NCBI RefSeq assembly: GCF_001412615.1
Contig: NZ_CP013011.1
Span: 480,001-512,000 of the forward strand
From: Pyrodictium delaneyi
GTDB lineage: Archaea; Thermoproteota; Thermoprotei_A; Sulfolobales; Pyrodictiaceae
Direction of reading: 5' to 3'
DNA length: 32,000 nt
This document shows positions 3,370 through 19,532 of this stretch, in pieces; the first letter of the stretch is position 1, and each line of letters starts with the position of its first letter. The translations under genes and the position numbers were made by a program. The notes below the pieces were generated by a model, which saw only the letters and a program-made list of their open reading frames with translations, was not told where the DNA came from and ran no database searches.

Positions 3370-3435
3370 CCCCCATTCATGCGTGCCTGTATTAACTTGA
3401 GTATTTAGAGTATTTAGAGCGCCTAGCACCGGTGA

Positions 3436-3442
3436 CTATATA
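3436..3442 (-). promoter_or_regulatory. TATA-like element (TATATAG on minus) upstream of the monohaem cytochrome c gene
   Basis: The reverse complement of 3436-3442 is TATATAG. It lies between the NrfD-like stop and the cytochrome c start, right after a T6 tract. Confidence 0.3.
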
Positions 3443-3480
3443 CATACGTACATGTTCTAGTTCTAAGAATCACATGATCT

Positions 3481-3486
3481 AAAAAA
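3481..3486 (-). terminator. oligo-T (T6) tract after the NrfD-like gene
   Basis: Plus-strand AAAAAA at 3481-3486 gives T6 on the minus strand, 16 nt downstream of the stop at 3502. Confidence 0.3.
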
Positions 3487-3501
3487 TAGTGAGCGTTGTC
3501 T

Positions 3502-4758: not shown

Positions 4759-4781
4759 CTGAGTCACCCCCGGCTTACCTG

Positions 4782-5813
4782 TCAATGTCCAGTTTCTCTC
4801 TCAGTTCCAGGCTCACGTGGAGGTGTACGCTTAGGCCCGAAGAAGTAGAAGAACCTGGGTCTTGTACCGGCTTCCGGCTTCAATACGAAAGCACCGTATT
4901 CCTCTATGACGCGGCGTATTGGGCTACTGGGATCGTGAAGGTCACCAAATACTCTTGCACCGACAGGACATACCTCGACACAAGCCGGCACGCCACCGTC
5001 GCGGGTGCGCTGTATACACCAGGTGCACTTCTCAACAACGTGTATTTGCCTCGGCACATTGCCTAGTATGTGCATGTTGGGGTTCAGTTCAGTTACAGGT
5101 ACGTATGGCTTAGCCCAGTTGAAGCGCCGTGCCCCGTAGGGGCAAGCAGTTATACAGTAACGACAACCAATACAACGGTCATAGTCCACTACTACTATGC
5201 CATCAGGCTCCTTCCATGTAGCCTTAACCGGACACACCATAGTACATGGCGGATCTTCGCAGTGCATACATGCTACTGGTACATACACCATGTTCGGCTT
5301 TGGCGCATCAGTGTAGTGCATGTTAGCGTAAACTATCTCCATTTCCTCTCTGGGTATTTCTAGTACCTTTATCCACTCTATACCCAGGTTCCTTGCCTGA
5401 TTGTTCTCCATGACGCATGCATAGGCGCAACGGCGACAGCCAATACACTTGTTCACATCAAGCGCCATCGCGAAACGCACGCCTTCGCGAGGACCAGTAG
5501 CCTTCACCTTTATCATGGCACAGCGCTTGCGTGCCTCTTTACAAGCCTCGGAGTCCTCACCCATACTGCTACAGATCTTTTCAGCCTCTGCTTGACACCA
5601 CTGCTTAAGCTTGGCTTCTCTTTCCTGGGCTCTTCTTTCAAGGGGGCTACCTGCTTCAGCAGCCTCCGCTATGAGATCCTCTACTCGTACTGGCACTAGC
5701 AGTTTCTTCAGCTCATCCCGGCTAACAGCAACAAATGATACTGCAGAGACGCCAGCCGCTACAGCAGCAACCTTGAGGAAGTCCCTCCTAGACTGGTTTA
5801 TGCGGCCCTCCAC
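4782..5813 (-). CDS. Tat-exported 4x[4Fe-4S] ferredoxin-type subunit (NrfC/PsrB/DsrO/ActB2-like)
   Basis: Twin-arginine signal QSRRDFLKVAAVAAG. Four cluster motifs: CIGCRRCAYAC, CMHCEDPPCTMVCP, CIGCRYCITACP, CTWC...CVEVCP. GTG start at 5813 is preceded by GGGGGTGA (5820-5827) with a 6-nt spacer. Confidence 0.9.
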   Translation of the reverse strand: MEGRINQSRRDFLKVAAVAAGVSAVSFVAVSRDELKKLLVPVRVEDLIAEAAEAGSPLERRAQEREAKLKQWCQAEAEKICSSMGEDSEACKEARKRCAMIKVKATGPREGVRFAMALDVNKCIGCRRCAYACVMENNQARNLGIEWIKVLEIPREEMEIVYANMHYTDAPKPNMVYVPVACMHCEDPPCTMVCPVKATWKEPDGIVVVDYDRCIGCRYCITACPYGARRFNWAKPYVPVTELNPNMHILGNVPRQIHVVEKCTWCIQRTRDGGVPACVEVCPVGARVFGDLHDPSSPIRRVIEEYGAFVLKPEAGTRPRFFYFFGPKRTPPREPGTERETGH

Positions 5814-5829
5814 TCCACTTCACCCCCTG

Positions 5830-6510
5830 TTACTCACGTGAATACCCTAGAGGGAGAACAAGAGCACCTATAGCTAGGATTAACCCGCCAATAACTGCTG
5901 CTATGGTACCGTAGGCCACGCTGGTCTCGTCAGGTGGTGCAGGCCTATTAGATGGGGGCGGCAGTATGCTCGCAGGTGGCATAGTCGGTTCATGAGGGTT
6001 ATGACATTCGACACATGCCTTAGCCGGTATTGTCTTGAGGTTCTTATACTCGGTGCAGAGGTGAAAGTCGTATCCGACGCCCTTATAGCCTATAACCTTT
6101 GTCACGTTGCCGTTGGGGCAAACATAGGTCTTGTTGCCATGTACTAGGTAGTTATAGTCGGTGACCTCGCGTGGATGGCATACAGCACATACCTTATTGG
6201 TCTCCTTGAGTTCTTGTGTACTGTGTAAGCCAGGTATGTAGACTTGAGCACCATTCACTAGATCTATCATTGTCGGTGCTATATGACAGTTTGAGCAGAA
6301 AAGGCCTCTGTGAGCACCCTTTGTGAGGTCGATACCGTGAAAAGGTACTGTCTTCCTATCGCCAGTTAGCTGCATCGTTTGATGACAGGTTGTACACGGA
6401 TAGAACTGGGCGGGGTCCTGGGCATGCGCTGTGACAGCTGAAAGTACTGGAACTATTATAGCAAGGGCTAGGGCTACTGCAGTCAATACTATGCGCGGAT
6501 TCCAACGCAT
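5830..6510 (-). CDS. tetrahaem c-type cytochrome, N-terminal signal peptide and C-terminal TM anchor
   Basis: Four CxxCH motifs (CTTCH, CSNCH, CAVCH, CVECH). Signal peptide MRWNPRIVLTAVALALAIIVPVLSAVTAHA. Pro-rich linker, then TM IAAVIGGLILAIGALVL. ATG 6510 is preceded by GGAGGTG. The ORF-track extension to 6645 lacks signal-peptide features. Confidence 0.85.
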   Translation of the reverse strand: MRWNPRIVLTAVALALAIIVPVLSAVTAHAQDPAQFYPCTTCHQTMQLTGDRKTVPFHGIDLTKGAHRGLFCSNCHIAPTMIDLVNGAQVYIPGLHSTQELKETNKVCAVCHPREVTDYNYLVHGNKTYVCPNGNVTKVIGYKGVGYDFHLCTEYKNLKTIPAKACVECHNPHEPTMPPASILPPPSNRPAPPDETSVAYGTIAAVIGGLILAIGALVLPLGYSRE

Positions 6511-6770
6511 GCTAGGCACCTCCAAAACCGTTGTAGTCATTATTCTATGTTTCGCTAACACTACACTATTTACCATGATTGAGGTACTGCTAGTACTTAC
6601 TTTAGAATTAAACGTTAGCCCGAAAAGTTCCCCTTTGACCAGCACTGACCAAGTCTACAATTCATGACAAACCCTAGTCCATTCACCTAATTGCACAAAA
6701 TAGTTATGTATATTACGTAAATATTTGCGGAGCTTATACGAAAGTCTTCCGCGAGAATGAGGCCAGACAC

Positions 6771-7313
6771 TTAACTTTCAAGCCTGCCAGCTGGCGCCTG
6801 GTAACTCTCATGACAACCTTCGAGTATCTTATTCACCATCAACAGCGGGTACTCCTCCACTTTACCTGTAGCTGTATTCATTATAACCACATGCACTGAT
6901 GGTTCATAACGTCCCTCTACTACGACCCTACTAGAGACACTCGGGCTACCACCATAAAGGTTCTTGAACTCATTAGCACTATAGAGTGCTACTACGCGAA
7001 ATCCATCTTTCCCTTCTAATATGAATACAGCATAGCTATCATCGTTACCAAAAGGAGGCCCATCTACACGTTCCGCCACCCCATAGGAGCCGAAACCTTT
7101 CATTGAATATACCGTATCTCCTATCCGGAGCAGGTAGCTACTGCCAGCGAGATTTACCGGCGTACCACGAACAGTCACATATGCTTCGTAGTCTAGGCTC
7201 TTTAGACTAGACACATCCTTATAGTCGGACGACTTTATACTCATAAACCCTATTGCCAATAGTGCTGCGAACAGTATACCCGCAAACATTAATGATTTGC
7301 CAGTTTTAGCCAT
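6771..7313 (-). CDS. ccmE: haem chaperone CcmE, archaeal CxxxY variant
   Basis: N-terminal TM anchor, beta-rich (OB-like) body, and a C-terminal LEGCHESYQAP motif (Cys codon at 6813-6815) where bacterial CcmE has HxxxY. Sits between ccmC and the cytochrome genes. GGGGGT lies 7 nt upstream of the ATG. Confidence 0.8.
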   Translation of the reverse strand: MAKTGKSLMFAGILFAALLAIGFMSIKSSDYKDVSSLKSLDYEAYVTVRGTPVNLAGSSYLLRIGDTVYSMKGFGSYGVAERVDGPPFGNDDSYAVFILEGKDGFRVVALYSANEFKNLYGGSPSVSSRVVVEGRYEPSVHVVIMNTATGKVEEYPLLMVNKILEGCHESYQAPAGRLES

Positions 7314-7367
7314 TATAGACCCCCATTGTTAGTAGTTAACTTACTACTGCATTATATTATGCTTAAC

Positions 7368-8399
7368 TCACACACCTCTACCACGGCTGCGAGATGCATA
7401 TAGCATTAGGACTCCAAGCAACATTAAATATGCCGCTACATTGAGGGCTACACTCCAGTGTATAACTATTTCAACACTAGAGTCTCTTATCTTCACGAGG
7501 TGTCCTATTATTGCAGGCTCACCCTCAACTATCGGTACAGTGAGCGGCTTACTTAGCTCTACATAACCACTCTTAGATAGCATTAACGCGACAACTTCGC
7601 CGTTAGCTAGCTTCGCATCTACTACACGTTCGACTCCGCCACTAAGGTACGGATATACCATAATCAGTCCCACGACTATACCAGCTATAACAAAGACTAT
7701 TCCAGCATAGCGTAATATTCCAACATGAAGGGGCTTAGCATTCTCGTAGCGTTTTGCCATTATATACGCCAGCAGAATAGCTATCAATGATGCCATTACT
7801 ATACGTGTAACAAATATCCTTATGACCTCTGGCTGGGCCATAAAGTTACCAAACTGCTCCATTGTTGGGTGAAGGCTCGAAGCTACTAACCGCGGTGCAA
7901 GGAAGCTTACCGGAACCATAGAGTACGCCGCTACTGCATAGGCTGCACTTAACCTACTTGCACGATCTGGGTCAGGAATGCTTGAACGCAGCACAAAATA
8001 CAAGAGATATGCTAAGAGCAGAAGAAGTACCCCGGTCTCTCGGGGATCCCAGGACCATGCTGAACCCCAGGACTCGCTAGCCCATGCCATACCACTAACG
8101 AGTGTAAATATAGCGTAAGCGGTAGCTGTAGCTATGAACGCCTGTATATACGCATCAAGTTTCTCGCTGCCCCGGACAAGATACGCAATTGCTGTGATAA
8201 ATGCTAGCGTGTATAGAAGGTAGCTTCCCCATGCCATTGGTATATGTATATATATGTTGAGATATGCCGTCGGTGAGCCAAGGTTGACGCGTAGCGGATA
8301 TGGCGCTCTGAAAGCAGCATAGACCACTAGAAGCGCGTCAATAGCCGATAACACTAGAAGTAGGGGAACAATCGTTTTCTCCAGACCACGCTTTACCAT
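7368..8399 (-). CDS. ccmC: haem-handling protein CcmC with about 95-aa C-terminal extension
   Basis: WWD motif WGSAWSWDPRETG and polytopic topology. At 343 aa it is longer than typical CcmC (about 250 aa). The extension is a soluble beta-rich segment plus one extra TM. Confidence 0.85.
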   Translation of the reverse strand: MVKRGLEKTIVPLLLVLSAIDALLVVYAAFRAPYPLRVNLGSPTAYLNIYIHIPMAWGSYLLYTLAFITAIAYLVRGSEKLDAYIQAFIATATAYAIFTLVSGMAWASESWGSAWSWDPRETGVLLLLLAYLLYFVLRSSIPDPDRASRLSAAYAVAAYSMVPVSFLAPRLVASSLHPTMEQFGNFMAQPEVIRIFVTRIVMASLIAILLAYIMAKRYENAKPLHVGILRYAGIVFVIAGIVVGLIMVYPYLSGGVERVVDAKLANGEVVALMLSKSGYVELSKPLTVPIVEGEPAIIGHLVKIRDSSVEIVIHWSVALNVAAYLMLLGVLMLYASRSRGRGV

Positions 8400-8471
8400 T
8401 GACTAACTTCACCATATGTTGATAGAAAAATTAAAAGGTATTAATAATCTAGCCCGATAGCTTCACAGAAG

Positions 8472-11400
8472 CTAACGACTATGCCGTTTTACTGCTATTA
8501 TTCTGACTACGGCAATATATACGGCACCAAGGGCCATAATTATTGGACCTATCCATACTAGGCGTATTCCCGGAATTATCTTAACCTGTACATGCAAGCC
8601 CTCCTTTACTATGGTCGAGTTTGTCTGACCGAAGTTCTCGGCTAGAAGGTAGAGGTCTACAAGAGTGGCCTCTACTTGTTGCCGTTCATCAACTGATAAG
8701 CTACCATCATTGAGCACGTCAACATTATACCCTGCAGCCATTAGTGCTGCTAGTGCAAGCCGCTTCTCTGGAGGCAAATGCTTAAAGGCTTCATGAAGGT
8801 AATAGACTAGTAGTTCATGATAGGCGACCCTGCCACCTATATAACCTTCTACTACTGGAGGGCTAACTACGACGTAGACATCATCCAGTCCAAGCCCTAT
8901 AGGTATAACTTTCGATACGAGACCATGTATACCTTGTATCTCACCATAAGCTTCGAAGCGTATCCTAACGTTAACGGTCTTGGACCAGTCTCCGTGTTCT
9001 ATCTTTAATCTTACTTCGAGCCACGCTGTCTCCGGTACCAGTCGCGGTGCGTCGACATAGCCGAAACAGCCATGCTGGCTTTTGAGGCACGTCGGGGATT
9101 CTACTAGCCTGTCTATTGCTGTTGAGTTTACGAGCAGTTGATATAGAGATGACTGCTCTATGCTCTGGAACATCTTCTGGGTTGTAGGGTTTAGCGATGC
9201 TATTAGGTAAGCTGCTACTGCTGGTGAAAGCTGTGATGGCACCTTTACTTTGCCAGCTTCTGGGGACTTTATGTATCCGTATACATAGAGAGCCGCGTTG
9301 CTACCAGTAATGGTGCTATTGTTTACTATGAAAGGAGCGCCTTTACCTGCTAGGAGTAACGCCTCCGGTAGGAGGCCTATACGTTCTGCTATCACTTCTA
9401 CGTCTCCTAGCCTTAGTCTTAGGGGTGTAGTGAACCGCATCTCTATGTATTTGTGGAATCCTATCTTGTCTTGTTCGATCGGAATAACAGCCGGCAGTTC
9501 TACCGTCAGGTTTGCTGCCCCTACAAGTAAGTCCACACTTATGACGCCTGTATTGGGATCCATGTTTAAGTCTAGTCTGAGCAGCGCTTTATCTAGTATT
9601 ATTTTTACTTGCTGATTTCTGGCCAGTATCATGGTGCCGTTGTTTTCAAGATCATATAGAGTTACTGTAGCATTGCCGGTCGCTATTACAGTTGTGTTCA
9701 GATCTATTGGACTATTTTTGGCCACCTTGAATAACCACTCTACAGTCTTATTACTATTGAACAATTCTTTGCCTTGGTTGTAGAGCTTTATAAACTCAGC
9801 TAAGTCGTTTTTAAGGAAGTTGAGCACATTCCATGCTAGGACATATGTGCTACTCCTACCGACATAGTTAGTGTATATATCCACAGTGGAGTTACTTATA
9901 CCGTAACTGAAATCTTCAAATGTTAATTTCGCACCACTAGGTAAACTTATGGAGTCGCCGGGCTTAAGCTCATAATACCAGGTGTACTTATCGTTAAACG
10001 CATAAGTGCCGCTGAGAATTACACCCAGCACAGTTACGGCTAAACCTAGATGCAGTAGCGATACAGCAGTAAGTCTATCGGCTACGATGAGTACTGAACG
10101 ACTACGCCACAACCTATACGCTATGTAGACCAGTGTGGATGCAGCTGCTATGACCGCCCACGGTACACCAAAGGCCATCAGCGCGTTGGTCTCGGGTGGA
10201 CTAAGAGGAGCCAGGATGTAAACGCCTTTATAAGCTGCTAAAGCGAACACTGTGGACACTATTGTTGTTGTTAGGAGTAGTGCTGTGTATCCTTTCCATC
10301 CTAGTTTGTCTCCTGTGAATGCTAGCGGGATTGCTGCTAGCATCGCTACTAGTAGCGGGTAGAGTACGGGGTGGAAGTAGCGTACACCACTCTGCATCTG
10401 AGGAACACTAGCCTCAACGCCAACAGCGCTGAGTATCGAAGGCAGAAAGAGAGTACCATATACGAATATAGCCGATAACAGGAGCGCCATCCCCGCAATA
10501 AACAAGCCCATTTTGTATAAATTCCGCTCCCGCAGCGTCCTAGCAGTCTCAGAAACTATTTTCTCACCATTACGGGCTAGCACATACACACCATAGACTA
10601 GCGGTGTCACACCAGCACTAAGGAGAAGCAGAGCACCAATACCAGGAGCTGCGAAACTATGTAGTGGACTAAGCCCTGTCCTAGTAACATACATGGCTAT
10701 AAACACTGAACTAAGCAGCCATGCAGCGTTATATCTAACAAAACTGGGAACAACAACCATAAAATGCGGCAATGTAGTAGCTACTAGCCATACCATTAGT
10801 TCGCTTGTCTCTACGGGGTCCCATGCCCAGTAGCCTCCCCAGCCGAAGGTCTCGTAGCTCCAGTAGCCGCCAATCATGATGCCGAGGGTTAGGAGAGCCC
10901 AGCCAAGCTCGTAGACGACGAGACTCCGGCGCTTCTCGCCAGTAAGCATAGCTGCAGCCGCTACCGCGAGTAGCGCGTAGCCGCCGAAGGTACTGAGGGG
11001 GTGCGGGTAGAGCCACGGACTCTTAAGCAGCGGGTTAAGCCCAGCACCGCTAGCCGGGCGTTCTGGTAGCAGAGCGAATGCTCCATTTAGAAAGGCTCCA
11101 GCTAGAGCTGCTAGGACCAAGGAGCCTAGTATTGCTTGGAATAGGCGACTCCGGTGAATCCGGAGTAGATAGAGACCTGCTGCCGATGCTATCACAGCGA
11201 AGAGGTATAGACTACCGCCACCCCCGGCCCACGCTGATGCTATTCGCATCGAGAGTGGGAGCCCGGGACTTGTATTCCAGAAAGCCTCACGGAGACTATA
11301 ATCCAGAGTCACAAAGGGGATCACATATACAAACCAGCCCGCTACAGCCACAGCGAGTCCATAGCGTAGTAGGCGCTCTCTACTTCTCCCCGCTACTGCT

Positions 11401-11495
11401 GATGCAACACTAGCTGCTACTAGTAGACCCGCCACGAGTGGAGCTATGCCTGTGTAATGTATGGGCAGAGCCAAGACCATCAATCCTCCATCCAT
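8472..11495 (-). CDS. ccmF: cytochrome c haem lyase subunit CcmF with a greatly expanded extracytoplasmic domain
   Basis: WWD motif WGGYWAWDPVETSE and an N-terminal polytopic region of about 500 aa. This is followed by about 450 aa of non-membrane sequence rich in NxS/T sequons and one terminal TM. Total length is 1007 aa. Confidence 0.9.
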   Translation of the reverse strand: MDGGLMVLALPIHYTGIAPLVAGLLVAASVASAVAGRSRERLLRYGLAVAVAGWFVYVIPFVTLDYSLREAFWNTSPGLPLSMRIASAWAGGGGSLYLFAVIASAAGLYLLRIHRSRLFQAILGSLVLAALAGAFLNGAFALLPERPASGAGLNPLLKSPWLYPHPLSTFGGYALLAVAAAAMLTGEKRRSLVVYELGWALLTLGIMIGGYWSYETFGWGGYWAWDPVETSELMVWLVATTLPHFMVVVPSFVRYNAAWLLSSVFIAMYVTRTGLSPLHSFAAPGIGALLLLSAGVTPLVYGVYVLARNGEKIVSETARTLRERNLYKMGLFIAGMALLLSAIFVYGTLFLPSILSAVGVEASVPQMQSGVRYFHPVLYPLLVAMLAAIPLAFTGDKLGWKGYTALLLTTTIVSTVFALAAYKGVYILAPLSPPETNALMAFGVPWAVIAAASTLVYIAYRLWRSRSVLIVADRLTAVSLLHLGLAVTVLGVILSGTYAFNDKYTWYYELKPGDSISLPSGAKLTFEDFSYGISNSTVDIYTNYVGRSSTYVLAWNVLNFLKNDLAEFIKLYNQGKELFNSNKTVEWLFKVAKNSPIDLNTTVIATGNATVTLYDLENNGTMILARNQQVKIILDKALLRLDLNMDPNTGVISVDLLVGAANLTVELPAVIPIEQDKIGFHKYIEMRFTTPLRLRLGDVEVIAERIGLLPEALLLAGKGAPFIVNNSTITGSNAALYVYGYIKSPEAGKVKVPSQLSPAVAAYLIASLNPTTQKMFQSIEQSSLYQLLVNSTAIDRLVESPTCLKSQHGCFGYVDAPRLVPETAWLEVRLKIEHGDWSKTVNVRIRFEAYGEIQGIHGLVSKVIPIGLGLDDVYVVVSPPVVEGYIGGRVAYHELLVYYLHEAFKHLPPEKRLALAALMAAGYNVDVLNDGSLSVDERQQVEATLVDLYLLAENFGQTNSTIVKEGLHVQVKIIPGIRLVWIGPIIMALGAVYIAVVRIIAVKRHSR

Positions 11496-11530
11496 TTAAC
11501 GCCACAATTTATCGCTACATAGCCTAGACG

Positions 11531-13090
11531 CTAGACGAGTTGAAGTGTATATAAAAGCAAGTACACACCCGCAACAACTAATACAAAGCCACCAATCCGC
11601 TGAAGTAATGTATAACGCCCCATCACCTTGTTTACTATGCTACTACCAAGCCGGCTCGCAGCATAGACTGCGAAAGCTAGTGGAACACTCACACCAAGGG
11701 CAAAGCTGACTGCCACAGCTATACTTGATACCAAGCTTCCTACTCCTACTACCAGTAGTAATGCTCCGGCCACCAACGGCAAACTGCATTGAACCGCTAA
11801 GAAACCATAAACGGCACAAAAGCCGACAAGACCACCACGCTTGATACCAACAACACCTTCTAGCTCTATGGGTATACCGAGAAGACTAGCAACACCTGCA
11901 GCAACTATTGCCGTCGCAACCGCTGGAAGGAGTATACTCTGGAGCGATGATGCAAGGCTAGAAGCAAGGACAAACAACAGTCCTATGGCTATGACGCCGG
12001 TAAAGGCCGCAATACCACATACTATACAGCTGGACGCGGAAATTTTTCTGCCAGAAGTTCCTGCTGCGCTTACATATGCCACCAGTAGAGGGAAAACACA
12101 CGGAGAAAATGTAGCTATAATACCGGCTACTAGCGCTGCTACGACGCCAACTAGGCTAGTACTTATTGCCCCACCGACGTCCAGAGCAGTATCGCCGTTA
12201 CCAGAATTCTGCTGAACACTAGCCGCAAGAGTAACATTAGTCAACGCCGCTATCGCTGGCGGCTCTCTATCCTCAAGCACCGCTGAAACATAGTCGAGAA
12301 GGTAGGCTAATCTGTCTATCTCATAAGATGATAGGTCTGGGACATATTTCCTCATAGACTTGACTGTATCGGATATTCCTCCATAGCTCCCATAGAGCTC
12401 GCGTAGTGTCATATTCTTCTCTAGAGCCTCGTTTAGTCTCCTCGCTAGGAGATCAGCCCTGGTATCGCGGGACTCGAGCCATGCCTGCAGCGAAGCTTTA
12501 TCCAGCCCACCTATCTTGCCATGACAAGCAGAGCAGCGGCTGTTAAAGATGCGCAGCCCTTCTTCTGCTAGCTTTTGGGGGTCAGACACACTGCTTAAAC
12601 CTACAGAGAACAATGCCCAGTTAAGCATTGTATCGGTAACATTCTCACCACCGAATGGACCTACGTGTCTTGCTACAGGCTCACCATCGACGAATACTAT
12701 GAATGTTGGCGTCTCCGTCACATGATATTTTCTAAAAGCCTCTTCAGTTGAAGGACCATAGACTATATGGAAGAAGCTGATAGGGAGGCTGTCGCTTCGA
12801 TACTCCAGCATAGCCCAGTAAGGGTGCATCTGCTTACACGTAGGACACGTAGGAGACTCAAACATTATTGCTATAGGCTTTTTTGAATCAAGTATCTTCT
12901 CTAACATAGCCGAGCTTGATATAGCGTATTCGTCGACCCTCATGTAGTAAGTAGCCAAATTTTGCTCCCAAGTGAAGAGGATAGTCGAGAATAACACTCC
13001 GACTACTAGTAACGCCACCAGCAGTACTCCAGCCCTCTTGGTCTTTTGGAAGCCATGGATGTCTAAGCGCATTCTACTAGAGTTCTGCAT
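11531..13090 (-). CDS. fusion protein: TM anchor + thioredoxin-like (CcmG/ResA-like) + cytochrome c-like CxxCH domain + CcdA/DsbD-type thiol transporter
   Basis: CPTC at residues 82-85 with a cis-Pro TPTF. EEGLRIFNSRCSACHG at residues 176-191. C-terminal polytopic domain with FSPCVFPL and AVQCSLPL, the CcdA signature cysteines. Confidence 0.8.
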   Translation of the reverse strand: MQNSSRMRLDIHGFQKTKRAGVLLVALLVVGVLFSTILFTWEQNLATYYMRVDEYAISSSAMLEKILDSKKPIAIMFESPTCPTCKQMHPYWAMLEYRSDSLPISFFHIVYGPSTEEAFRKYHVTETPTFIVFVDGEPVARHVGPFGGENVTDTMLNWALFSVGLSSVSDPQKLAEEGLRIFNSRCSACHGKIGGLDKASLQAWLESRDTRADLLARRLNEALEKNMTLRELYGSYGGISDTVKSMRKYVPDLSSYEIDRLAYLLDYVSAVLEDREPPAIAALTNVTLAASVQQNSGNGDTALDVGGAISTSLVGVVAALVAGIIATFSPCVFPLLVAYVSAAGTSGRKISASSCIVCGIAAFTGVIAIGLLFVLASSLASSLQSILLPAVATAIVAAGVASLLGIPIELEGVVGIKRGGLVGFCAVYGFLAVQCSLPLVAGALLLVVGVGSLVSSIAVAVSFALGVSVPLAFAVYAASRLGSSIVNKVMGRYTLLQRIGGFVLVVAGVYLLLYTLQLV

Positions 13091-13207
13091 GATGCCGCAC
13101 CAACATATCCTCGCAGCTCCATCCTCTATGCCTCTATCACGCCTGTATTAGAGCGGTTATCAATTATCCTATAATTATGTGTTCAGATAAATGTTCGGCA
13201 ACCAACT

Positions 13208-13221
13208 TCAACAGCTGTTGA
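13208..13221. repeat. perfect 14-bp palindrome TCAACAGCTGTTGA in the ccmB / Trx-CcdA intergenic region
   Basis: Read directly from the sequence. It lies 13 nt past the ccmB stop in a 143-nt intergenic region, and an AT-rich tract (ATAATTATAGG on the minus strand) follows. Confidence 0.5.
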
Positions 13222-13233
13222 TGTAATGTACAA

Positions 13234-13905
13234 TTACACAGCCTCCAGGATATAGCGAGAAAGCCAAACAGTCACCCCAGTAAATGCCAGGGCCGCTAAG
13301 ACAAGCCATACAACCTCTAACACCCCTATATTACCACCCAGAAGTGCAGCCACTATGCTAGGTGCTGCGGACTGCACATAGGGAAGCACGAGGACAAGCA
13401 CCATTACGGGCATCAATACTGCACGGGCCTCACTAAACACTAATATAGCTGAAGTAAAGCTAGATACAGCTGCAAGATACATACTTGACACAATAATCAA
13501 CATAAGTACTACTGGACTAAACATAACCCCTATTTGGGCAAAGAAGCCCAACGACATTATAAAGACAAGTGCTTGCATTGTTATAACTGCAAAACTATAG
13601 ACAAACTTTGCAAGGAATATAACCTCTGCACCTACTGGAGCCAATCGGAGTCCATCAAGTGTACCGCGATCAGCTTCTCTGACAAAGCTAGAAAGACTTC
13701 CAAATACGGCAAGGAATATGAGAACAAGAACGAGAGAAACACTGGCAGCAGCAGCATTTACTCCAGCAACACCTTTCATAACATATGCTGTGAGGACACC
13801 GGCAGCTAACGAGAATACTAGCATGGACCCCGCTTCAACTCTACGACGCAGATCTAGCAAGATATCTCTGCGTACAATAGCCGCTATTGCCCTTATACCG
13901 CTCAT
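13234..13905 (-). CDS. ccmB: haem exporter membrane subunit CcmB
   Basis: About 224-aa, six-TM hydrophobic protein in ccm context. ATG 13905 is preceded by GGGGGAGGT. The ORF-track start at 13989 adds 28 unlikely residues. Confidence 0.8.
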   Translation of the reverse strand: MSGIRAIAAIVRRDILLDLRRRVEAGSMLVFSLAAGVLTAYVMKGVAGVNAAAASVSLVLVLIFLAVFGSLSSFVREADRGTLDGLRLAPVGAEVIFLAKFVYSFAVITMQALVFIMSLGFFAQIGVMFSPVVLMLIIVSSMYLAAVSSFTSAILVFSEARAVLMPVMVLVLVLPYVQSAAPSIVAALLGGNIGVLEVVWLVLAALAFTGVTVWLSRYILEAV

Positions 13906-14101
13906 GACCTCCCCCAATCTTCCAGCGTCTCTAAGCCCCTTAATCACTACGCCTCGAGATCGCCAAAAAGCCAGCCAAATTACGAACACACTACACCATT
14001 ACACATAAAGACTGATAATCAATACTAGGACCAAGGACTAACATGTTACACCGAAGACGCGCTACCAAGAGAGTCAAAAAGGCTAAGAAGGATGATAAGT
14101 C

Positions 14102-15158: not shown

Positions 15159-16742
15159 TTAAGTTATATATCGTTTACTAACAATCACTATACTAAACAT
15201 CGCGCCGAAACCTAAGCCAATTAGAAACCATAATATTTGCTCATAACGATCTGCTATTAGTTGCGCATTCCCATAAGAACCAGAAGAATTAATATCTTTT
15301 ATAGCTATTTGTTTAATTCTTGACTTATTTAAATATATATCTGACTTACCATGCTGTGCAACACCATTTTCTGGAAATTCTTTATTTTCTATGCCGGCTG
15401 TTACATTTAACTTTCCATGTTGTTGCACTGTGTAATTGACAAGCTCTCTAGAAGGACATCCAGTTAAGTTAGTCATAGTCTTCATATCTACGCTAAGACT
15501 ACTTATATCTATTAAAGGCCATGTACTACTTTTAGTGCTAGCTGCTATAAGCACACGACCAACCAGAGCTTCTAGAGTCTCTCTACAAGGAGATTGTAAT
15601 TCTTCAACCATCATTTTTATAACGTCCAACAAGCTTATAGAATCCTTAAGTCCAGTCGTAATTGATAGGTTGTATAACCTCCTTACAGTATCAATATAAA
15701 CATCTCTATCACAGGCCTGTATACCTGCATACCATAATGCAGCATTAACTCGCATCCAAACACTGTATTGTTCATCTACATCCAACATGTCATTAAGATA
15801 ATTAACAGCTAGTCTATACAAGCGGGGATTATTATCGTGGAGAGCTTTCATAGCCAGAAACTCTGCAGCCGCTTCCTGAAAGCTAAAATCACCATACAAC
15901 ATACCATGGTTAAACCATCCATGTGATGTCTCGTGCGCCGCCGTATGGACAAGCCAAGGAAGTATATCCTCAGCATATGAGCTTAATTTCATGTATACTA
16001 TACTGCCCATGCTATGCGCTGTATTTGGTGGCAGAAAGCTATGTTCTTCTGGTCCTACAATCACGAGAACGCAAGGCGAGCGTGGACTCGGACCAAGCCA
16101 TTTAGTTAAGGTGGAGCGCACTATTAGTAAGCTTTCCACGGCATACTTGACAACATTTTCTGGTATATTGCGCTGCATAATCACAGTCAAGTTTTCTTCT
16201 ATATAGTCATTAATATCATATATTCTTCTGTTGGCCAAGACTATTCCGTCAAATATGTAGTATCTGGCGAAAGATTCGAGATCCACTCTGTAAGGGCCCC
16301 CGGCTGGCCCGTAGCTGCGCCAGTCCATACTACTTCTAACCATATAGTTATCAGGAACATGTATCGTTATAAGTAGAGTTTTGTTTCCACTACTGCCAGC
16401 AAGGATCTGTATCTCAGAGATAATTTGCGGACATACTTTATCCAGTACATAGTAGAGGGGGGCCACTATAAGATCGCGAGATACACTCCTAGTTTGTAAA
16501 TAATACACGTTAGGGCCTAGTAAACCAGAACAGTTTATGCTGGAATCATGCCCCTCTAATGTTATAGAAACGCGCCAGACATCGCTGCTTACGGGCTCTT
16601 TAAATACTATTATAAGGTTATATTGCTGAACTGTATCCGTCTTATCGGTGAGATTGGATACTCCAGCTATAGCAATGGAACTCGTAAGAATAATAATTGC
16701 CGCAAAACTTGTCACAGTATAGCATAGCCAACACGAAGCCAT
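15159..16742 (-). CDS. membrane-anchored extracellular gluzincin (peptidase M1-like) protein
   Basis: HETSHGWFNH...FQEAAAEF resembles the M1 HExxH-x18-E region (HELAHQWFGN...WLNEGFA). No clear GxMEN motif. N-terminal signal/TM and a C-terminal TM ending KRYIT. Many NxS/T sequons. The gene is markedly AT-rich. Confidence 0.55.
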   Translation of the reverse strand: MASCWLCYTVTSFAAIIILTSSIAIAGVSNLTDKTDTVQQYNLIIVFKEPVSSDVWRVSITLEGHDSSINCSGLLGPNVYYLQTRSVSRDLIVAPLYYVLDKVCPQIISEIQILAGSSGNKTLLITIHVPDNYMVRSSMDWRSYGPAGGPYRVDLESFARYYIFDGIVLANRRIYDINDYIEENLTVIMQRNIPENVVKYAVESLLIVRSTLTKWLGPSPRSPCVLVIVGPEEHSFLPPNTAHSMGSIVYMKLSSYAEDILPWLVHTAAHETSHGWFNHGMLYGDFSFQEAAAEFLAMKALHDNNPRLYRLAVNYLNDMLDVDEQYSVWMRVNAALWYAGIQACDRDVYIDTVRRLYNLSITTGLKDSISLLDVIKMMVEELQSPCRETLEALVGRVLIAASTKSSTWPLIDISSLSVDMKTMTNLTGCPSRELVNYTVQQHGKLNVTAGIENKEFPENGVAQHGKSDIYLNKSRIKQIAIKDINSSGSYGNAQLIADRYEQILWFLIGLGFGAMFSIVIVSKRYIT

Positions 16743-16883
16743 GTTTTGCCAGCCTCTTTAGAGCCTAGTCTAACCTCTGTTGTCACTCGAATATGGTATC
16801 AAATACTTCAGCAGGAGTAGAGGCCGTTCACAGGCAAAATTAACCATACATGCAAGGATTGGTTATGGTAAACACTCTTAGGT

Positions 16884-16889
16884 AAAAAA
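16884..16889 (-). terminator. oligo-T (T6) tract after the octahaem cytochrome gene
   Basis: Plus-strand AAAAAA at 16884-16889 gives CTATTTTTTACC on the minus strand, about 45 nt past the stop at 16933. It sits inside a CTTAGG...CCTAAG inverted repeat. Confidence 0.35.
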
Positions 16890-16932
16890 TAGTTAGGCTT
16901 GAAATTGACCCTAAGTGTTAAGCTCACAACTA

Positions 16933-19482
16933 TTAGCTCCGGCGGTAGACTATTGATAGGCCTAGGGCTATTACTGCAGCAGCTAGCGCTATAGCGCCTA
17001 GCGTGTAAGCTGTCGATGATACACTGTCTATCTTGCTGCTTAACTCATCGATCTTCTTGCTTATCTCCTCTATCATGCTTATAGCTTGGCCTGCCTTATT
17101 GCTTGCCTCTTCAGCCTTCATGCTCGCCTCTTCTGCCTTAGCATTTGCTGTCTCAGCCTTCTGTCCTATAGTCTGTAGCTGTCCCGCCACCTGCTGTATC
17201 TCGGATACTAGCTTCTGTATCTCCTTGGCCTGTGGACTTAGTGCCTCTAGCTGTTTGCTCAGCTCTTGCAACTGCTGCAATAGTGTGTTAACATCAGTCT
17301 TTAGCGAGCCAACGTCACCTTCTATAGCTGAATAGCCGGTCTCTAGGCTCTGTAGCTGGCTCTTTAGCACCGGTACCTGGGCCTCTAGAGCTGCTAGCTG
17401 CGCCTTGAGGCTCTCTAGTTCGCGCTGTAGTTGTGCTATCTGTGCAGCTAGCTCAGGCGTGTACGGAGCACCAGCAGCTGCCTGCTTTAGTGCCTGTAGC
17501 TCAGTTTCTATCTGCTTTATCTTTAGTGCCGTGTAGAGGTAGCTGGTCATTCTACCTAGCTTGTCCATTACCGTATCTACTATACCGAACCAGTGGGCGA
17601 AGTCTGGACCCATCATGTAGACGCCATTCCTCCAGCGGCGACCCTCATGATGCCATATGTAGTACCACATTATCTCCATGTACTCGTCAAGTATGTTCTT
17701 GTTATCGTGTATGCCCTCCTTCCACGCTAGCTGTAGTAGCGCGTTCGCGAACCTGGCTACTATGTCGTAGTCTATCATGTTCTGGTCGGCAGTACGGAAG
17801 AAGTTCTCGGTCCACTGGCTGCTGTGACATAGCTTACATACTGCCTCCATCTCGGCACGGTGCTTGGCTAGCTCGCCAGTGTACTCTACCTTTAGTAGTC
17901 TCGGGAACTTGGTCTCGCCTATCTTGCCACCATCCTCTACTATCTTTATGCCGGTGAATACCGGGTACTTGTATGGCTCTGGTGCCTTGTCGTTCTTCTT
18001 AGCCTCTATGTCCTCTAGCTTGCCCTTTAGCTGGCTCCAGCCGTAGAATAGTGCTTGCTGCATCTTGTCGGGTATTATGCCCTTAGGTATGCTGAAGAAG
18101 TGCATCTGGTCCCATACTAGCCTCTTCACAAGGTCGTGGGTACCGGGCACTAATATGTTGCCGTTAGCATCGGCTAGAGCACTCATGTGACATGTAGCAC
18201 ATGTTGGCGCATTGAAGTCTACACCAACACGCCATGGTATCTGATCCCAGTTCCAGTCCTTACCGTATACGTCCCATATGTTGCCGTGCTTGCTCTCCTC
18301 GTAGATCTCTATGTGTGGATGGTCGTAACCTAGGTGGCACTGACCACATGTCCATGGCTCGCGTGCCTGCTTTATGCTGAATAAATGTCTTGGGTGGCAT
18401 GCAGTACAAGTGCCAAGGCTGCCGTCTGGGTCTAGACGAGCTGCACCATTGTTAGGCCAGCCCCATAGGGCTACTCTATTGACTTGCATACCATTGATTG
18501 TCACAGTCTCCTTCTTATAGGGTACTACGACTGTACCGTGACATTCGAAGCATGCATGATATATGTACCCGTTTCTGAACGATGGGTGCTCCATCACGTT
18601 ACTTATTGCTTTACTGTTACCATCTATGGACGTTACTGCTATCTTTATACCCATCTTGTTAAGAAGTGTTGTATTTAGTACACCACTTGCAGGCCATAGC
18701 GGGCTTATAAATGTCTTCCAGTCATAATCATAGGGCGTTACCATGCCAGTTGCCTCTTTGAGCATCTTTACTATGTCATTCTCCTGGCCAGTCTCCATGT
18801 ACTGCATTATGGCCTTTGCTATCTCCTTGTAGAAGTTCCAGTTTATGTCATCTACGTCACGCTGCTTAGTTAGGTATGGTGGGAAGTACTTCTCGTAGAG
18901 GGCCTTAGCCTGGGCATCGCCGAATGGGTCTGCGCCCTGGCTCTTAGCCCACTTTAGTATGCCCAGATACCATGGCTTAAATGGTGACATGACGCTGCCT
19001 GTTGCGTGCCATGTCCAGCTTATCTCTGCGCTCTCCTTGGGGTGACACTGGCTACAGTCCTTCCTTGTAACTATGGTTACTATCTTGTAGCCGAAGTGGT
19101 TTTCTATGACGTCAGGCCTGTCAGCTTCCTTAAACATACCGTGACACTCGTAACAGCCTATTACGTAGTTGTAGTTCTTGAACTTGTCAGCTATCTTGTC
19201 GGCCCATTCTGGGGTGCCTATAGCCTTGTAGAGGTCTGCTAGCGCTGCAGGGGTCATCTCGGCATGCTTGCTGTTAGCCCAGTCATACACTATGCCCGGT
19301 GTATACTGTATGTGACAGCTTAGACATGCCTTGGTCTGCGGGCTTACGACATCACTCTTCATTAGTTCTTGAACCTTAGCTGCTAGGTCGTCGCCGAACT
19401 GGGCTGCATGAGCAGGTGCTGCTATGCCTGCTACTAGGAGGAAGGATAGGACTAGGATACCGGCTAGTAGGAAGCGCTTCAT
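16933..19482 (-). CDS. octahaem c-type cytochrome, hydroxylamine oxidoreductase (HAO)-family-like, with C-terminal coiled-coil stalk and TM anchor
   Basis: Eight CxxCH motifs (CLSCH, CYECH, CSQCH, CFECH, CTACH, CGQCH, CATCH, CKLCH). The block GTCTACHPRHLFSIKQAREPWTCGQCHLGYDHPHIEIYEESKHG matches my memory of the HAO family. Signal peptide MKRFLLAGILVLSFLLVAGIAAPAHA follows GGAGGG. The last 198 aa are about 172 aa of heptad-like Q/L/E/K-rich sequence plus a TM ending YRRS. Confidence 0.85.
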   Translation of the reverse strand: MKRFLLAGILVLSFLLVAGIAAPAHAAQFGDDLAAKVQELMKSDVVSPQTKACLSCHIQYTPGIVYDWANSKHAEMTPAALADLYKAIGTPEWADKIADKFKNYNYVIGCYECHGMFKEADRPDVIENHFGYKIVTIVTRKDCSQCHPKESAEISWTWHATGSVMSPFKPWYLGILKWAKSQGADPFGDAQAKALYEKYFPPYLTKQRDVDDINWNFYKEIAKAIMQYMETGQENDIVKMLKEATGMVTPYDYDWKTFISPLWPASGVLNTTLLNKMGIKIAVTSIDGNSKAISNVMEHPSFRNGYIYHACFECHGTVVVPYKKETVTINGMQVNRVALWGWPNNGAARLDPDGSLGTCTACHPRHLFSIKQAREPWTCGQCHLGYDHPHIEIYEESKHGNIWDVYGKDWNWDQIPWRVGVDFNAPTCATCHMSALADANGNILVPGTHDLVKRLVWDQMHFFSIPKGIIPDKMQQALFYGWSQLKGKLEDIEAKKNDKAPEPYKYPVFTGIKIVEDGGKIGETKFPRLLKVEYTGELAKHRAEMEAVCKLCHSSQWTENFFRTADQNMIDYDIVARFANALLQLAWKEGIHDNKNILDEYMEIMWYYIWHHEGRRWRNGVYMMGPDFAHWFGIVDTVMDKLGRMTSYLYTALKIKQIETELQALKQAAAGAPYTPELAAQIAQLQRELESLKAQLAALEAQVPVLKSQLQSLETGYSAIEGDVGSLKTDVNTLLQQLQELSKQLEALSPQAKEIQKLVSEIQQVAGQLQTIGQKAETANAKAEEASMKAEEASNKAGQAISMIEEISKKIDELSSKIDSVSSTAYTLGAIALAAAVIALGLSIVYRRS

Positions 19483-19532
19483 GATCGGCATACCCTCCAC
19501 ACACCCTTATTTTTAGCCGTGATAGTCAATAT

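Follow-up and report, generated by a model that had tools for sequence, protein, structure and literature searches.

A coiled-coil stalk and a C-terminal membrane anchor on an octahaem cytochrome c of Pyrodictium delaneyi

The window analysed here, a stretch of 32,000 nucleotides of Pyrodictium delaneyi DNA, holds the gene of an octahaem cytochrome c whose long C-terminal tail ends in a membrane anchor. The locus raises the question of what kind of structure this tail forms, and of where in the cell envelope it would hold the haem-bearing part of the protein. The open reading frame (16933..19500, minus strand, on which all other features given below also lie; stop codon at 16933-16935) specifies 855 amino acids when counted from a GTG, or 849 from an alternative ATG at 19482, which provides the residue numbering used throughout. 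A P. delaneyi multihaem c-type cytochrome found in the database is 100% identical to it and 852 amino acids long, which implies a start at 19491; the start codon is therefore likely that at 19491 or that at 19482. Given this identity and the gene order, which agrees with that described for the Pyrde_0485-0496 cluster (PMC8105010), the gene is probably Pyrde_0496.

The protein begins with a Sec-type signal peptide read from the sequence (residues 1-26, MKRFLLAGILVLSFLLVAGIAAPAHA; 19405..19482), with a predicted cleavage site before AQ. The catalytic head that follows (residues 27-639; 17566..19404) contains exactly eight CxxCH motifs, at residues 53, 110, 143, 311, 359, 379, 428 and 549, and every Cys of the protein belongs to one of them. 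Their order and spacing follow those of the HAO/IhOCC-type octahaem cytochrome c family; across 64 homologues, motifs 2-6 and 8 are invariant, motif 1 is nearly so, and in motif 7 residues C428, C431 and H432 are invariant. A preliminary description of the locus had placed the head in the HAO family, and both sequence and predicted fold bear this out. A phmmer search matched PDB entry 4qo5 at E = 5e-79 and HAO, HAO-like and HDH chains at E = 4e-19 to 1e-9, a family profile searched against the PDB matched 4qo5 at E = 1.4e-108, with a further value of 5.5e-32, and the Pfam model PF13447 scored 74.5 bits against a cut-off of 21.9. When the AF2 model, in which the pLDDT of the head is mostly >90, was submitted to Foldseek, 4qo5 again came first (E = 1e-24, target TM 0.73), followed by 6h5l, 1fgj, 4n4j and 6hif (HAO, HDH). 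By these sequence and model comparisons, the head is an octahaem cytochrome c of the HAO/IhOCC family, most like Ignicoccus IhOCC (4qo5) and HAO; an insert of ~150 residues (158-309) is missing from 4qo5. The head closes with an amphipathic helix (residues 640-669; 17476..17565), delimited by its heptad register and by an AF2 helix at 626-671 (pLDDT 84-91). This terminal helix is found in all homologues, stalk-less ones included, and it is there that the Ignicoccus and bacterial homologues stop.

The Tyr that forms the P460 cross-link in HAO was also sought. The alignment of HAO to the query by sequence stops at haem 8, and the candidates near the conserved W-H-H...G-P-D region vary: Y622 is not kept among the homologues, and at position 628 P. 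delaneyi has Phe where the consensus has Tyr. The IhOCC clade is reported to be without the HAO Tyr cross-link (PMC9250108). By analogy with IhOCC, the head is most likely a reductase of nitrite, hydroxylamine or related substrates. Family precedent also suggests a homotrimer: HAO-family heads oligomerise via their C-terminal helices (PMC9250108), and the oxidative HAOs are described as homotrimers (PMC8042395). Pyrde_0496 has been detected in haem-stained bands of both nitrate-grown and ferrihydrite-grown cells, at 140-160 kDa (PMC8105010). Since the mature holo-monomer was calculated at ~98 kDa and the trimer at ~293 kDa, the gel is neutral on the trimer, speaking neither for nor against it.

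Beyond the head, the preliminary description had recognised a stalk of ~170 residues and an anchor, and this architecture stood. The last 198 residues (652-849; 16936-17529) read as quoted there, contain KAEEASMKAEEASNKA, and finish with a transmembrane (TM) helix and then YRRS. The coiled-coil signal is very strong, far beyond that of 5000 shuffles: hydrophobic residues fill 27 consecutive a/d positions (shuffle mean 6.1, maximum 13), and hydrophobicity shows a power of 159 at period 3.5 (shuffle mean 9, maximum 76). Two heptad registers can be followed, one unbroken from residue 676 to ~771, the other starting at ~752 and continuing into the TM helix; each stalk helix has a single hydrophobic seam, at a/d, with polar e/g positions. 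Directly after the terminal helix comes a Gly/Pro neck (residues 670-675, AGAPYT, then Pro676; 17458..17475), conserved in the long-stalk class and marked by an AF2 helix break at 672-675. All a/d positions are hydrophobic in coiled-coil segment 1 (residues 676-746; 17245..17457), the register being unbroken through P704 and G716/G722/G725. This segment includes the stalk motif A-[LM]-E-A-x-V-P-x-L of the family consensus (residues 698-706; 17365..17391), the Pro of which (Pro704, heptad position b) is kept in 51 of 55 stalked homologues. A break containing Pro750 (residues 747-751; 17230..17244), visible in the AF2 model and as a stutter-type shift of the heptad register, separates it from segment 2 (residues 752-824; 17011..17229). 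The heptads of the latter include an alanine-zipper stretch (776-800) and two one-heptad tandem duplications (21 nt each in the DNA, at 17030-17074 and 17093-17140), and the segment matches the Lpp/OprI alanine-zipper model weakly.

The TM helix (residues 825-845, AYTLGAIALAAAVIALGLSIV; 16948..17010) has the best 19-residue mean Kyte-Doolittle value in the tail (2.4), and the basic tip YRRS (residues 846-849; 16936..16947), read from the sequence, fits a positive-inside topology. The helix is kept in all stalked homologues, whose C-termini read RRK, RRS, KRK and similar. None of the NCBIfam models for archaeosortase-type C-terminal sorting signals (PGF-, CGP- and GVDTG-CTERM) matched above its cut-off; GVDTG_CTERM came closest, at 14.1 bits against 29, and PGF and CGP motifs are absent. 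In this layout a Sec-exported head is followed by a long heptad-repeat helix that leads straight into the C-terminal TM helix. The tail is a true coiled coil, closed by a TM anchor whose cytoplasmic tip is basic.

Far from being peculiar to the P. delaneyi gene, the stalk belongs to the family. It is common to at least 55 archaeal homologues, all uncharacterised, among them an octahaem cytochrome of Pyrolobus fumarii with the same long stalk, and its length classes track lineage. The TM helix lies 172-211 residues past the head motif in Pyrodictiaceae (the longest class), 105-137 residues past it in Desulfurococcales/Acidilobaceae MAGs (the medium class), and only ~40 residues past it in Korarchaeota, in which the stalk is almost absent. 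The tether is missing in double-membraned Ignicoccus, and none of the 31 bacterial homologues examined has a stalk or TM tether. The stalk-less Igni_1359 of I. hospitalis and an I. islandicus-type protein (P0030) share the head and end just past the terminal helix, so the stalk is probably dispensable for building or oligomerising the head. Within the long-stalk class, identity is 40% in the stalk versus 66% in the head, while a/d runs of 13-28 are retained; the stalk thus appears, from its fast divergence and retained heptads, to be under structural rather than sequence constraint. Nine of 29 distinct indels measure 7, 14 or 21 residues. The net length difference equals 0, 3 or 4 modulo 7 for 26 of the 32 homologues compared.

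Within 15 kb and on the same strand as the octahaem gene lie CcmA/B/C/F-type genes and a candidate CcmE, belonging to a system I cytochrome c maturation set (6771..13989): the candidate CcmE (6771-7313; supported by position, size and a C-terminal CHESY, with no Pfam match), a CcmC-like gene (7368-8399), CcmF (8472-11495), a thioredoxin/monohaem/multi-TM fusion (11531-13090) and CcmB (13234-13989). Ccm genes also adjoin the octahaem gene in Korarchaeota, Pyrofollis and MAG loci. Four further genes (2731..6645) make up a candidate electron-supply module: one for a tetrahaem cytochrome c (5830-6645), one for a 4Fe-4S protein exported by Tat (4782-5813), one for a membrane subunit of NrfD type (3502-4785) and one for a monohaem cytochrome c with a ~65-residue Pro/Thr-rich linker and a TM helix (2731-3429). 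The same four genes adjoin the octahaem gene in H. butylicus and in a Desulfurococcales MAG; synteny of the octahaem gene with the tetrahaem, FeS, NrfD and tethered monohaem genes extends over three lineages. The conserved downstream neighbour of the octahaem gene (15159..16742) encodes a membrane-tethered protein with an M1-type zinc-metallopeptidase fold (HExxH...E), and such a gene sits directly 3' of the stalked octahaem gene in Pyrodictium, Hyperthermus and Pyrofollis.

Taken together, we favour, with a probability of roughly 0.6, the reading that an IhOCC/HAO-type octahaem head stands on a parallel, probably trimeric coiled-coil spacer of 18-25 nm, tethered by its TM helix in the pseudo-periplasm. 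The signal peptide would export the cytochrome, the neighbouring Ccm system would supply its haems, and the single TM helix with its basic tip would keep it on the cytoplasmic membrane. The three chains of the head trimer may zip up in parallel along the ~155-170 heptad-repeat residues between head and anchor, in a coiled coil that would prolong the terminal helix common to every family member. Such a spacer would be semi-rigid and could bend at two or three hinges. The preliminary description had reckoned with a continuous stalk of ~25 nm. A long heptad rod is indeed present, but since it is interrupted at the neck (670-675), at a Gly-rich stretch (713-725) and at Pro750 with its register shift, 25 nm is the upper end of the estimate of 18-25 nm. 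A spacer of this size, if extended, would place the head in the upper pseudo-periplasm, probably ~20 nm from the membrane and close to the S-layer or beneath it. In a cell without an outer membrane, the anchor would keep the enzyme from being lost, and the height of the enzyme would be fixed by the stalk. Electrons from the quinol pool might plausibly reach the head through the NrfD/4Fe-4S/tetrahaem module, the monohaem cytochrome serving as a carrier that swings on its flexible Pro/Thr tether. Against this reading, the linker of the monohaem cytochrome (~57-66 residues) shows no scaling with stalk length across three lineages.

The hints at a trimer are the oligomerisation of the head family, the Lpp-like alanine zipper, and the best PDB matches of the tail, which are trimeric coiled coils (reovirus sigma-1, SlaB, P22 gp26 and Lpp). 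A compact alternative would have the helices 640-669, 676-712, 724-746 and 752-815 fold back antiparallel, within one chain or in six-helix fashion in a trimer, giving a pedestal of 5-10 nm with the head near the membrane and a repeat that serves stability rather than spacing. The AF2 monomer, of low confidence past residue 710 (pLDDT 33-68), has helix breaks at 672-675, 713-723, 747-751 and 816-825, exactly at Gly/Pro sites, and it gives weak Foldseek matches to BAR-like or three-helix bundles (only at E>1), which suggests that the tail is folded back in the model. True kinks or turns may lie at the conserved GAPY-x-P neck and at the nearly invariant Pro704, the helices 640-669 and 676-712 may form a helix-turn-helix, and the high pLDDT at 640-700 would suit a packed hairpin. 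However, AF2 monomer models of homo-oligomeric coiled coils often fold back artefactually. One a/d seam per helix with polar e/g positions would not suit helices on the inside of a six-helix bundle, homologues without a stalk already have the seam of 640-669 engaged, and the heptad phase is held across P704 and the Gly-rich stretch into the TM helix. Single uncompensated indels of 7, 14 or 21 residues, which in one helix only would leave antiparallel overhangs, fit a parallel homo-oligomer better. We therefore consider a folded-back tail unlikely.

Alternatively, the cytochrome might serve also as part of the cell wall, a SlaB-like pillar that anchors the S-layer, its trimeric head docked in the lattice, with the stalk setting the width of the pseudo-periplasm and the protein possibly serving as an electron outlet through the S-layer. 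The S. acidocaldarius SlaB stalk and TM helix (8qox_B, residues 349-473) are the best solved coiled-coil match of the family profile (E = 1.2e-10, above generic coiled coils), in keeping with the likeness to S-layer stalk proteins that had been noticed beforehand. SlaB is a trimeric pillar beneath a p3 lattice; the hexagonal S-layers of Pyrodictium and Hyperthermus are compatible with trimers on three-fold axes, and P. delaneyi requires direct contact with Fe(III) minerals (PMC8105010). Against this, P. fumarii has a p4 lattice yet possesses the same long-stalk protein, and protein abundance showed no difference between growth on iron and on nitrate (PMC8105010). Neither Pfam nor the Foldseek fold search revealed Ig-like or S-layer domains in the head, the fold matches of which are all cytochromes; the NCBIfam SlaB model reached the protein only at E = 4e-5, far below its cut-off. 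As an exhaustive search with the tail alone matched only generic coiled-coil proteins and no specific relatives, the SlaB likeness is probably one of analogy, and we regard a structural role in the wall as very unlikely.

Very unlikely, too, is a transient tether, from which the head would be clipped after haem insertion and assembly, perhaps by the adjacent M1-like peptidase, to become a soluble pseudo-periplasmic enzyme. The position of the peptidase gene in three Pyrodictiaceae genera would suit such processing, but M1 enzymes are mostly aminopeptidases, not endoproteases, and no cleavage motif is evident in the sequence. Ignicoccus octahaem cytochromes occur in both soluble and membrane fractions, but those in the soluble fraction have no tail at all. 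A Sulfolobus amylase with a C-terminal anchor is set free in part, by a mechanism as yet unexplained (PMC3387779); a disposable tether, however, would need neither ~170 residues of kept heptad phase nor a lineage-specific length. That the coiled coil is a docking rail, hetero-oligomerising with the neighbouring peptidase or another envelope protein, would suit the nearly invariant motif in an otherwise fast-evolving stalk and has a precedent in the STABLE protease bound to the tetrabrachion stalk, but is extremely unlikely as a substitute for the homotrimeric spacer, with which docking is compatible, the conserved neighbourhood offering no partner with a complementary long coiled coil and only disordered or Pro-rich linkers.

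A more far-reaching version of the trimeric spacer can be drawn, though we think it rather unlikely to hold as a whole. The pseudo-periplasm of Pyrodictiaceae would house a vertical respiratory chain: a membrane-bound quinol-oxidising NrfD/FeS/tetrahaem complex, a monohaem shuttle on a flexible glycosylated tether, and, immediately beneath the S-layer, the octahaem reductase on a rigid trimeric stalk, the stalk length evolving in heptad steps to match the envelope width of each lineage. Were such a chain to exist, the enzyme could intercept incoming nitrogen oxides or hand electrons on to minerals in contact with the S-layer, and it would be the first enzyme whose height above the membrane is genetically set by a coiled-coil ruler.

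In the literature we found no description of a stalked HAO-like enzyme, as the preliminary description had supposed, and no published width for the Pyrodictium pseudo-periplasm. The two purified homologues, Igni_0955 (IhOCC, PDB 4qo5) and Igni_1359 of Ignicoccus hospitalis (Parey et al. 2016; Nass et al. 2014), share the head family, predicted fold and order of the eight CxxCH motifs, but are stalk-less, stopping ~30-35 residues past the head motif. Igni_1359 is 56% identical over the whole head and shares the insert between haems 3 and 4, but has no stalk or TM helix and ends 34 residues past the head; the 4qo5 chain has only ~29 residues beyond the aligned head. The envelopes differ as well: reviews describe Pyrodictium as S-layered, in line with the earlier assumption of a cell without an outer membrane, and Ignicoccus, which has no S-layer, as the only archaeon with an outer membrane. 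Bacterial HAO (1fgj/4fas), the Kuenenia HAO-like proteins and hydrazine dehydrogenase share the octahaem core and oligomerisation through C-terminal helices, at only ~14-18% identity in structural alignment and without a long coiled coil; in the oxidative HAO enzymes a Tyr (Y467 in N. europaea) forms the P460 cross-link to the catalytic haem of the adjacent subunit. Bacterial Hao sequences have already been annotated with a C-terminal TM segment (PMC2628731 Fig. S1), and many archaeal cytochromes c have been noted to have C-terminal anchors, so the novelty of the C-terminal region lies in the long stalk only.

Among archaeal envelope proteins, the ANME MHC-A/MHC-B cytochromes, to which the protein had been likened, are also multihaem, have a C-terminal TM helix and have been suggested to bridge the gap from the membrane to the S-layer (PMC9012536). 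The parallel goes no further: they carry 20-80 haems and the DUF1608 S-layer domain (as defined in PMC9012536), to which the P. delaneyi protein has no Pfam match, and they lack a coiled coil, whereas here eight haems form an enzyme-type head on a coiled coil. SlaB of Sulfolobus acidocaldarius (8qox chain B) is alike in its signal peptide, extracellular head, trimeric coiled-coil helix of ~130 residues and C-terminal TM helix, but its head consists of three Ig-like beta-sandwich domains that grip the SlaA lattice, while that of P. delaneyi is a cytochrome enzyme. In Staphylothermus marinus (Desulfurococcales), tetrabrachion is likewise a membrane-anchored coiled-coil stalk, holding the STABLE protease tens of nm above the membrane; its stalk is tetrameric, with a right-handed 11-residue repeat and a length of 70 nm, and binds the protease non-covalently, whereas in P. 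delaneyi the enzyme is fused to its stalk.

The octahaem cytochrome c (OCC) gene lies on the minus strand at positions 16933–19500, and encodes 855 residues if translated from a GTG codon or 849 from the ATG at 19482 (residues are numbered here on the 849-residue form). Its product is 100% identical to the 852-residue NCBI entry 'multiheme c-type cytochrome [Pyrodictium delaneyi]', which implies a start at 19491. It contains exactly eight CxxCH motifs (residues 53, 110, 143, 311, 359, 379, 428 and 549) and no cysteines elsewhere; it starts with a typical Sec signal peptide (…AAPAHA/AQ), and the C-terminal end reads AYTLGAIALAAAVIALGLSIV at residues 825–845, followed by YRRS. The coordinates and make-up of the protein in the preliminary description were correct, the last 198 residues reading as quoted there. 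The best solved relative of the head was IhOCC of Ignicoccus hospitalis (Igni_0955, PDB 4qo5; E = 5e-79), followed by Kuenenia HAO-like proteins, Nitrosomonas HAO and hydrazine dehydrogenase (HDH), all matches being stronger with the family profile. The AF2 model of the head was confident, and Foldseek again placed 4qo5 first (target TM 0.73), then HAO and HDH structures. Compared with 4qo5, the window OCC carries ∼150 extra residues between haems 3 and 4, confidently modelled as a helical insert (residues 158–309; 18556–19011, minus strand) that is absent from 4qo5 but present in Igni_1359, the second octahaem cytochrome of Ignicoccus, and in all the Pyrodictiaceae homologues. The Ignicoccus protein recovered with this insert (P0032; 638 residues, 56% identical to the window OCC) is most likely Igni_1359. 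The alignment to HAO stops at haem 8, with the cross-linking Tyr outside the aligned part; this Tyr has been reported missing from the IhOCC clade (PMC9250108). The head is an exported IhOCC-type octahaem cytochrome for which, by analogy with IhOCC, the default guess would be nitrite or hydroxylamine reduction.

A sliding scan for heptad registers divided the region leading to the C-terminal TM helix into three segments. The end of the head's last helix (residues 640–669) is followed, after a Gly/Pro neck (670–675), by a first stalk register running from 676 to ∼771, unbroken across Pro704, Gly716/722/725 and Pro750, and then, after a stutter-type register shift, by a second that extends from ∼752 into the TM helix. 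All a/d positions of the two stalk registers are hydrophobic, giving a run of 27, where 5000 shuffles of the same residues averaged 6.1 and never exceeded 13. At 159, the period-3.5 hydrophobicity power also stood above that of the shuffled sequences (mean 9, maximum 76), so that the proposal of a coiled-coil tail was borne out by two measures above their shuffle maxima. In residues 776–800 both a and d are occupied by Ala; this alanine zipper weakly matched the Lpp/OprI alanine-zipper model. The many sub-threshold Pfam/NCBIfam matches of the tail (SMC, Rad50, laminin, tropomyosin, FlaC, SlaB) are what a coiled coil usually produces; those to SMC, Rad50, laminin and tropomyosin were discarded as functional leads, as were the names attached to JGI homologues ('methyl-accepting chemotaxis protein', 'FlaC', 'SlyX', 'Zn-ribbon'), all being generic coiled-coil matches. 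The signal models tested gave no support for a sortase-type C-terminal signal. In the AF2 monomer, helices were placed at residues 626–671, 676–712, 724–746, 752–815 and 826–848, with high confidence to about residue 700 and low confidence after it. The tail is a conserved heptad-repeat region with a C-terminal TM anchor and a positive-inside tip.

Tail length was compared among the 64 closest archaeal homologues, measuring from the conserved W-x-G-x-V-D-T motif. In I. hospitalis, and in an I. islandicus-type representative and metagenomic relatives, the tail comprised 30–37 residues and lacked a TM helix. The TM helix lay ∼40 residues after the motif in MAGs labelled Korarchaeota, ∼84 residues after it in a single intermediate case (P0065), 105–137 in MAGs labelled Desulfurococcales or Acidilobaceae, and 172–211 in the long class, made up of Pyrodictium, Hyperthermus, Pyrolobus, Pyrofollis and Pyrodictiaceae MAGs. 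No anchor was present in the 31 bacterial homologues examined (L019–L078, among the matches listed). The tether is thus found in the sampled single-membrane archaeal lineages, and not in the double-membraned Ignicoccus or the bacterial homologues examined. More distant archaeal homologues (L014–L018, L023 and L025; Hydrothermarchaeota and Methanobacteriota MAGs) have a short coiled coil or a Pro/Glu-rich linker, ending in a GVCGPT...-type hydrophobic tail that is CGP-CTERM-like, albeit with a weak HMM match; if true, this would be another mode of tethering the same octahaem enzyme.

Within the long class, identity to the window OCC averaged 66% over the head and 40% over the stalk, and hydrophobic a/d runs of 13–28 were kept throughout. 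Nine of 29 distinct stalk indels measured 7, 14 or 21 residues, and net differences in stalk length equalled 0, 3 or 4 modulo 7 (heptads, stammers, stutters) in 26 of 32 homologues, counts which come from related sequences and describe a pattern rather than a probability. The stalk-coding DNA itself bears two tandem duplications of 21 nt, i.e. one heptad, at 17030–17074 and 17093–17140 (2.1 and 2.3 copies; KIDELSS/KIDSVSS and KAEEASM/KAEEASN), and the stalk of H. butylicus is 14 residues shorter at the second of these sites. Heptad steps are evidently how the stalk grows and shrinks.

The helix breaks of the AF2 monomer, a model that is weakly BAR-bundle-like, would suit a tail folded back on itself as a helical bundle. 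The single hydrophobic seam per helix, the continuity of phase and the uncompensated heptad indels fit such a bundle poorly, however, and it appears rather unlikely. We favour an extended stalk in which the three C-terminal helices of a head trimer would run on into a parallel trimeric coiled coil. Counted over ∼124 AF2-helix residues in the stretch 676–815, the part of the head helix that protrudes and three short interruptions, such a rod would span ∼18–25 nm at 0.148 nm per residue. The 25 nm of the preliminary description is therefore the upper bound of this estimate. Since stalk-less homologues share the head and end just past its terminal helix, the job of the stalk is probably spacing, while the anchor would serve to retain the enzyme in a cell without an outer membrane. 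In Thermoproteota examples with an S-layer only, the pseudo-periplasm is 30–70 nm wide; a width for that of Pyrodictium was looked for in the literature and not found.

A likeness to S-layer stalk proteins had been suggested beforehand. The OCC family profile matched chain B of 8qox with E = 1.2e-10, aligning stalk and TM helix to residues 349–473, and generic coiled coils (tropomyosin, GCN4 fusions, sigma-1) reached ∼5e-6 at best in the same search. This chain is SlaB of Sulfolobus acidocaldarius, the pillar beneath the S-layer, in which a C-terminal helix of 132 residues forms a trimeric coiled coil and the TM helix spans residues 448–470 (PMC10903991). When the tail alone was used, the trimeric reovirus sigma-1 tail was the best match and SlaB the second, and an exhaustive tail-only phmmer search of 1.84 billion representatives returned 316 matches, none below 1e-30 and all of them multi-stretch generic coiled-coil proteins; evidence for the stalk as a shared homologous module was not found in it. 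As the tail search yielded only generic coiled-coil proteins, SlaB was taken as an analogue: the resemblance stands as one of architecture, and the tail search shows no specific homology. An OCC acting as a structural pillar of the S-layer would agree with the hexagonal lattices of Pyrodictium and Hyperthermus, yet Pyrolobus has the same protein and a p4 lattice, making this role improbable. Equally improbable is that the tether is transient and the enzyme clipped off. The conserved motif A-[LM]-E-A-x-V-P-x-L (residues 698–706; 17365–17391) stands out in an otherwise fast-evolving coiled coil, its Pro (Pro704, heptad position b) being shared by 51 of the 55 stalked homologues. This Pro motif might act as a hinge or as a trigger or docking site, and is compatible with the stalk being a docking rail for partner proteins, a reading we consider very improbable.

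Downstream of the OCC gene lies a series of same-strand genes encoding, in order, an M1-fold protein, an HTH_10 regulator, CcmB, a thioredoxin/monohaem/multi-TM fusion, CcmF, a CcmC-like protein, a candidate CcmE, a tetrahaem cytochrome, a Tat-exported 4Fe-4S protein, an NrfD-type protein, a monohaem cytochrome and a CcmA-like ATPase. This order is that of the Pyrde_0485–0496 cluster described by Kashyap and Holden, in whose study haem-stained bands of 140–160 kDa contained the octahaem Pyrde_0496 in nitrate- and ferrihydrite-grown cells alike (PMC8105010). An oligo-T tract ∼45 nt past the OCC stop codon and an A/T-rich box upstream of the start suggest separate transcription of the OCC gene. 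The complete archaeal Ccm cluster (6771–13989, minus strand) is interleaved with respiratory genes; CcmF has 1007 residues, including a long extra C-terminal region, the candidate CcmE, negative in a Pfam search, ends in ...EGCHESY, which we take to be the archaeal CxxxY type, and the 519-residue fusion, in which a thioredoxin fold is joined to a single CxxCH and a multi-TM part, may be DsbD/CcdA-like. Ccm genes adjoin the OCC gene in Korarchaeota, Pyrofollis and a Desulfurococcales MAG as well. In Ignicoccus hospitalis (L002, 11968–13908) and Pyrofollis japonicus (L005, 7820–9790) it is adjoined, on the opposite strand, by a gene for a ∼650-residue protein with PAPS-reductase-like and 4Fe-4S domains, which is absent from the window. 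The sole RNA gene detected in the window by ARAGORN and Rfam was a tRNA-Leu (CAG) at 22108–22195 on the plus strand.

The 527-residue, membrane-tethered M1-like protein (15159–16742, minus strand) was recognised by its AF2 fold and conserved residues, Pfam and PDB sequence searches giving no match. Its model (core pLDDT above 90) matched two-domain M1 zinc metallopeptidases (6kp1, ERAP1, tricorn F3), and its residues H270-E271-x-x-H274 and E290/E294 do not vary. The protein further comprises a TM helix or signal at its N-terminus, ∼80 residues of disordered linker and a TM helix at its C-terminus. The family comprises only 16 clusters, and the gene directly follows that of a stalked OCC in Pyrodictium, Hyperthermus and Pyrofollis only. 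GC content is 36–43% at 15000–17000 and ∼50% around it, and the M1-like gene is 92% identical to its nearest database relative, against 100% to P. delaneyi for the adjacent OCC; this region may be a divergent or exchanged allele.

The tetrahaem cytochrome c, the Tat-exported 4Fe-4S protein and the NrfD/PsrC-type subunit (3502–6645, minus strand) constitute an NrfCD-like or ACIII-like quinol module, in which the tetrahaem protein has a short Pro-rich linker and then a TM helix. Three lineages show synteny of the module with the octahaem gene; together with the monohaem gene, the set also adjoins it in H. butylicus and the Desulfurococcales MAG. In H. butylicus, gene calling splits the FeS gene into two overlapping genes (L001, 15051–15671 and 15655–16119), which may reflect a frameshift. 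The monohaem cytochrome c (CTGCH; 2731–3429, minus strand) is joined to its C-terminal TM helix by a Pro/Thr/Gln-rich linker of ∼65 residues, probably glycosylated, and looks like a tethered electron shuttle. Linkers of similar length occur in the homologues of H. butylicus (L001, 17569–18171) and the Desulfurococcales MAG (L003, 9264–9878). A scaling of this linker with stalk length was rejected, as it measures ∼57–66 residues in three lineages while the TM helix of the OCC lies ∼120–190 residues after the head motif. From synteny only, electrons might pass from quinol to NrfD, the FeS protein, the tetrahaem cytochrome, the tethered monohaem cytochrome and finally the OCC head.

If the stalk is extended, electrons must cross ∼20 nm, for which tethered small cytochromes make an obvious candidate, one being encoded in the same cluster, and respiratory enzymes could be placed at defined heights beyond positions in or on the membrane. 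The main appeal of the stalked OCC is that it makes the spatial organisation of the archaeal pseudo-periplasm directly testable. A trimeric head of ∼10 nm on a thin stalk should be a recognisable cryo-ET target in cultivable organisms, and length variation in heptad steps offers a natural series in which stalk length can be set against envelope width. The stalked OCC may also bear on the direct-contact reduction of insoluble Fe(III) by Pyrodictium delaneyi. The OCC gene had already been annotated and its protein detected, and TM segments at the C-terminus of Hao proteins are on record, as are C-terminal anchors in archaeal cytochromes. In a literature search that was incomplete, no description was found of the long stalk, its lineage-specific length classes or its absence from Ignicoccus and the examined bacteria, in agreement with the earlier view that such a stalk was undescribed for an HAO-like enzyme. 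A member of the well-understood HAO/IhOCC family is here fused to a ruler-like stalk that differs in length between lineages and is lacking where the cell has an outer membrane.
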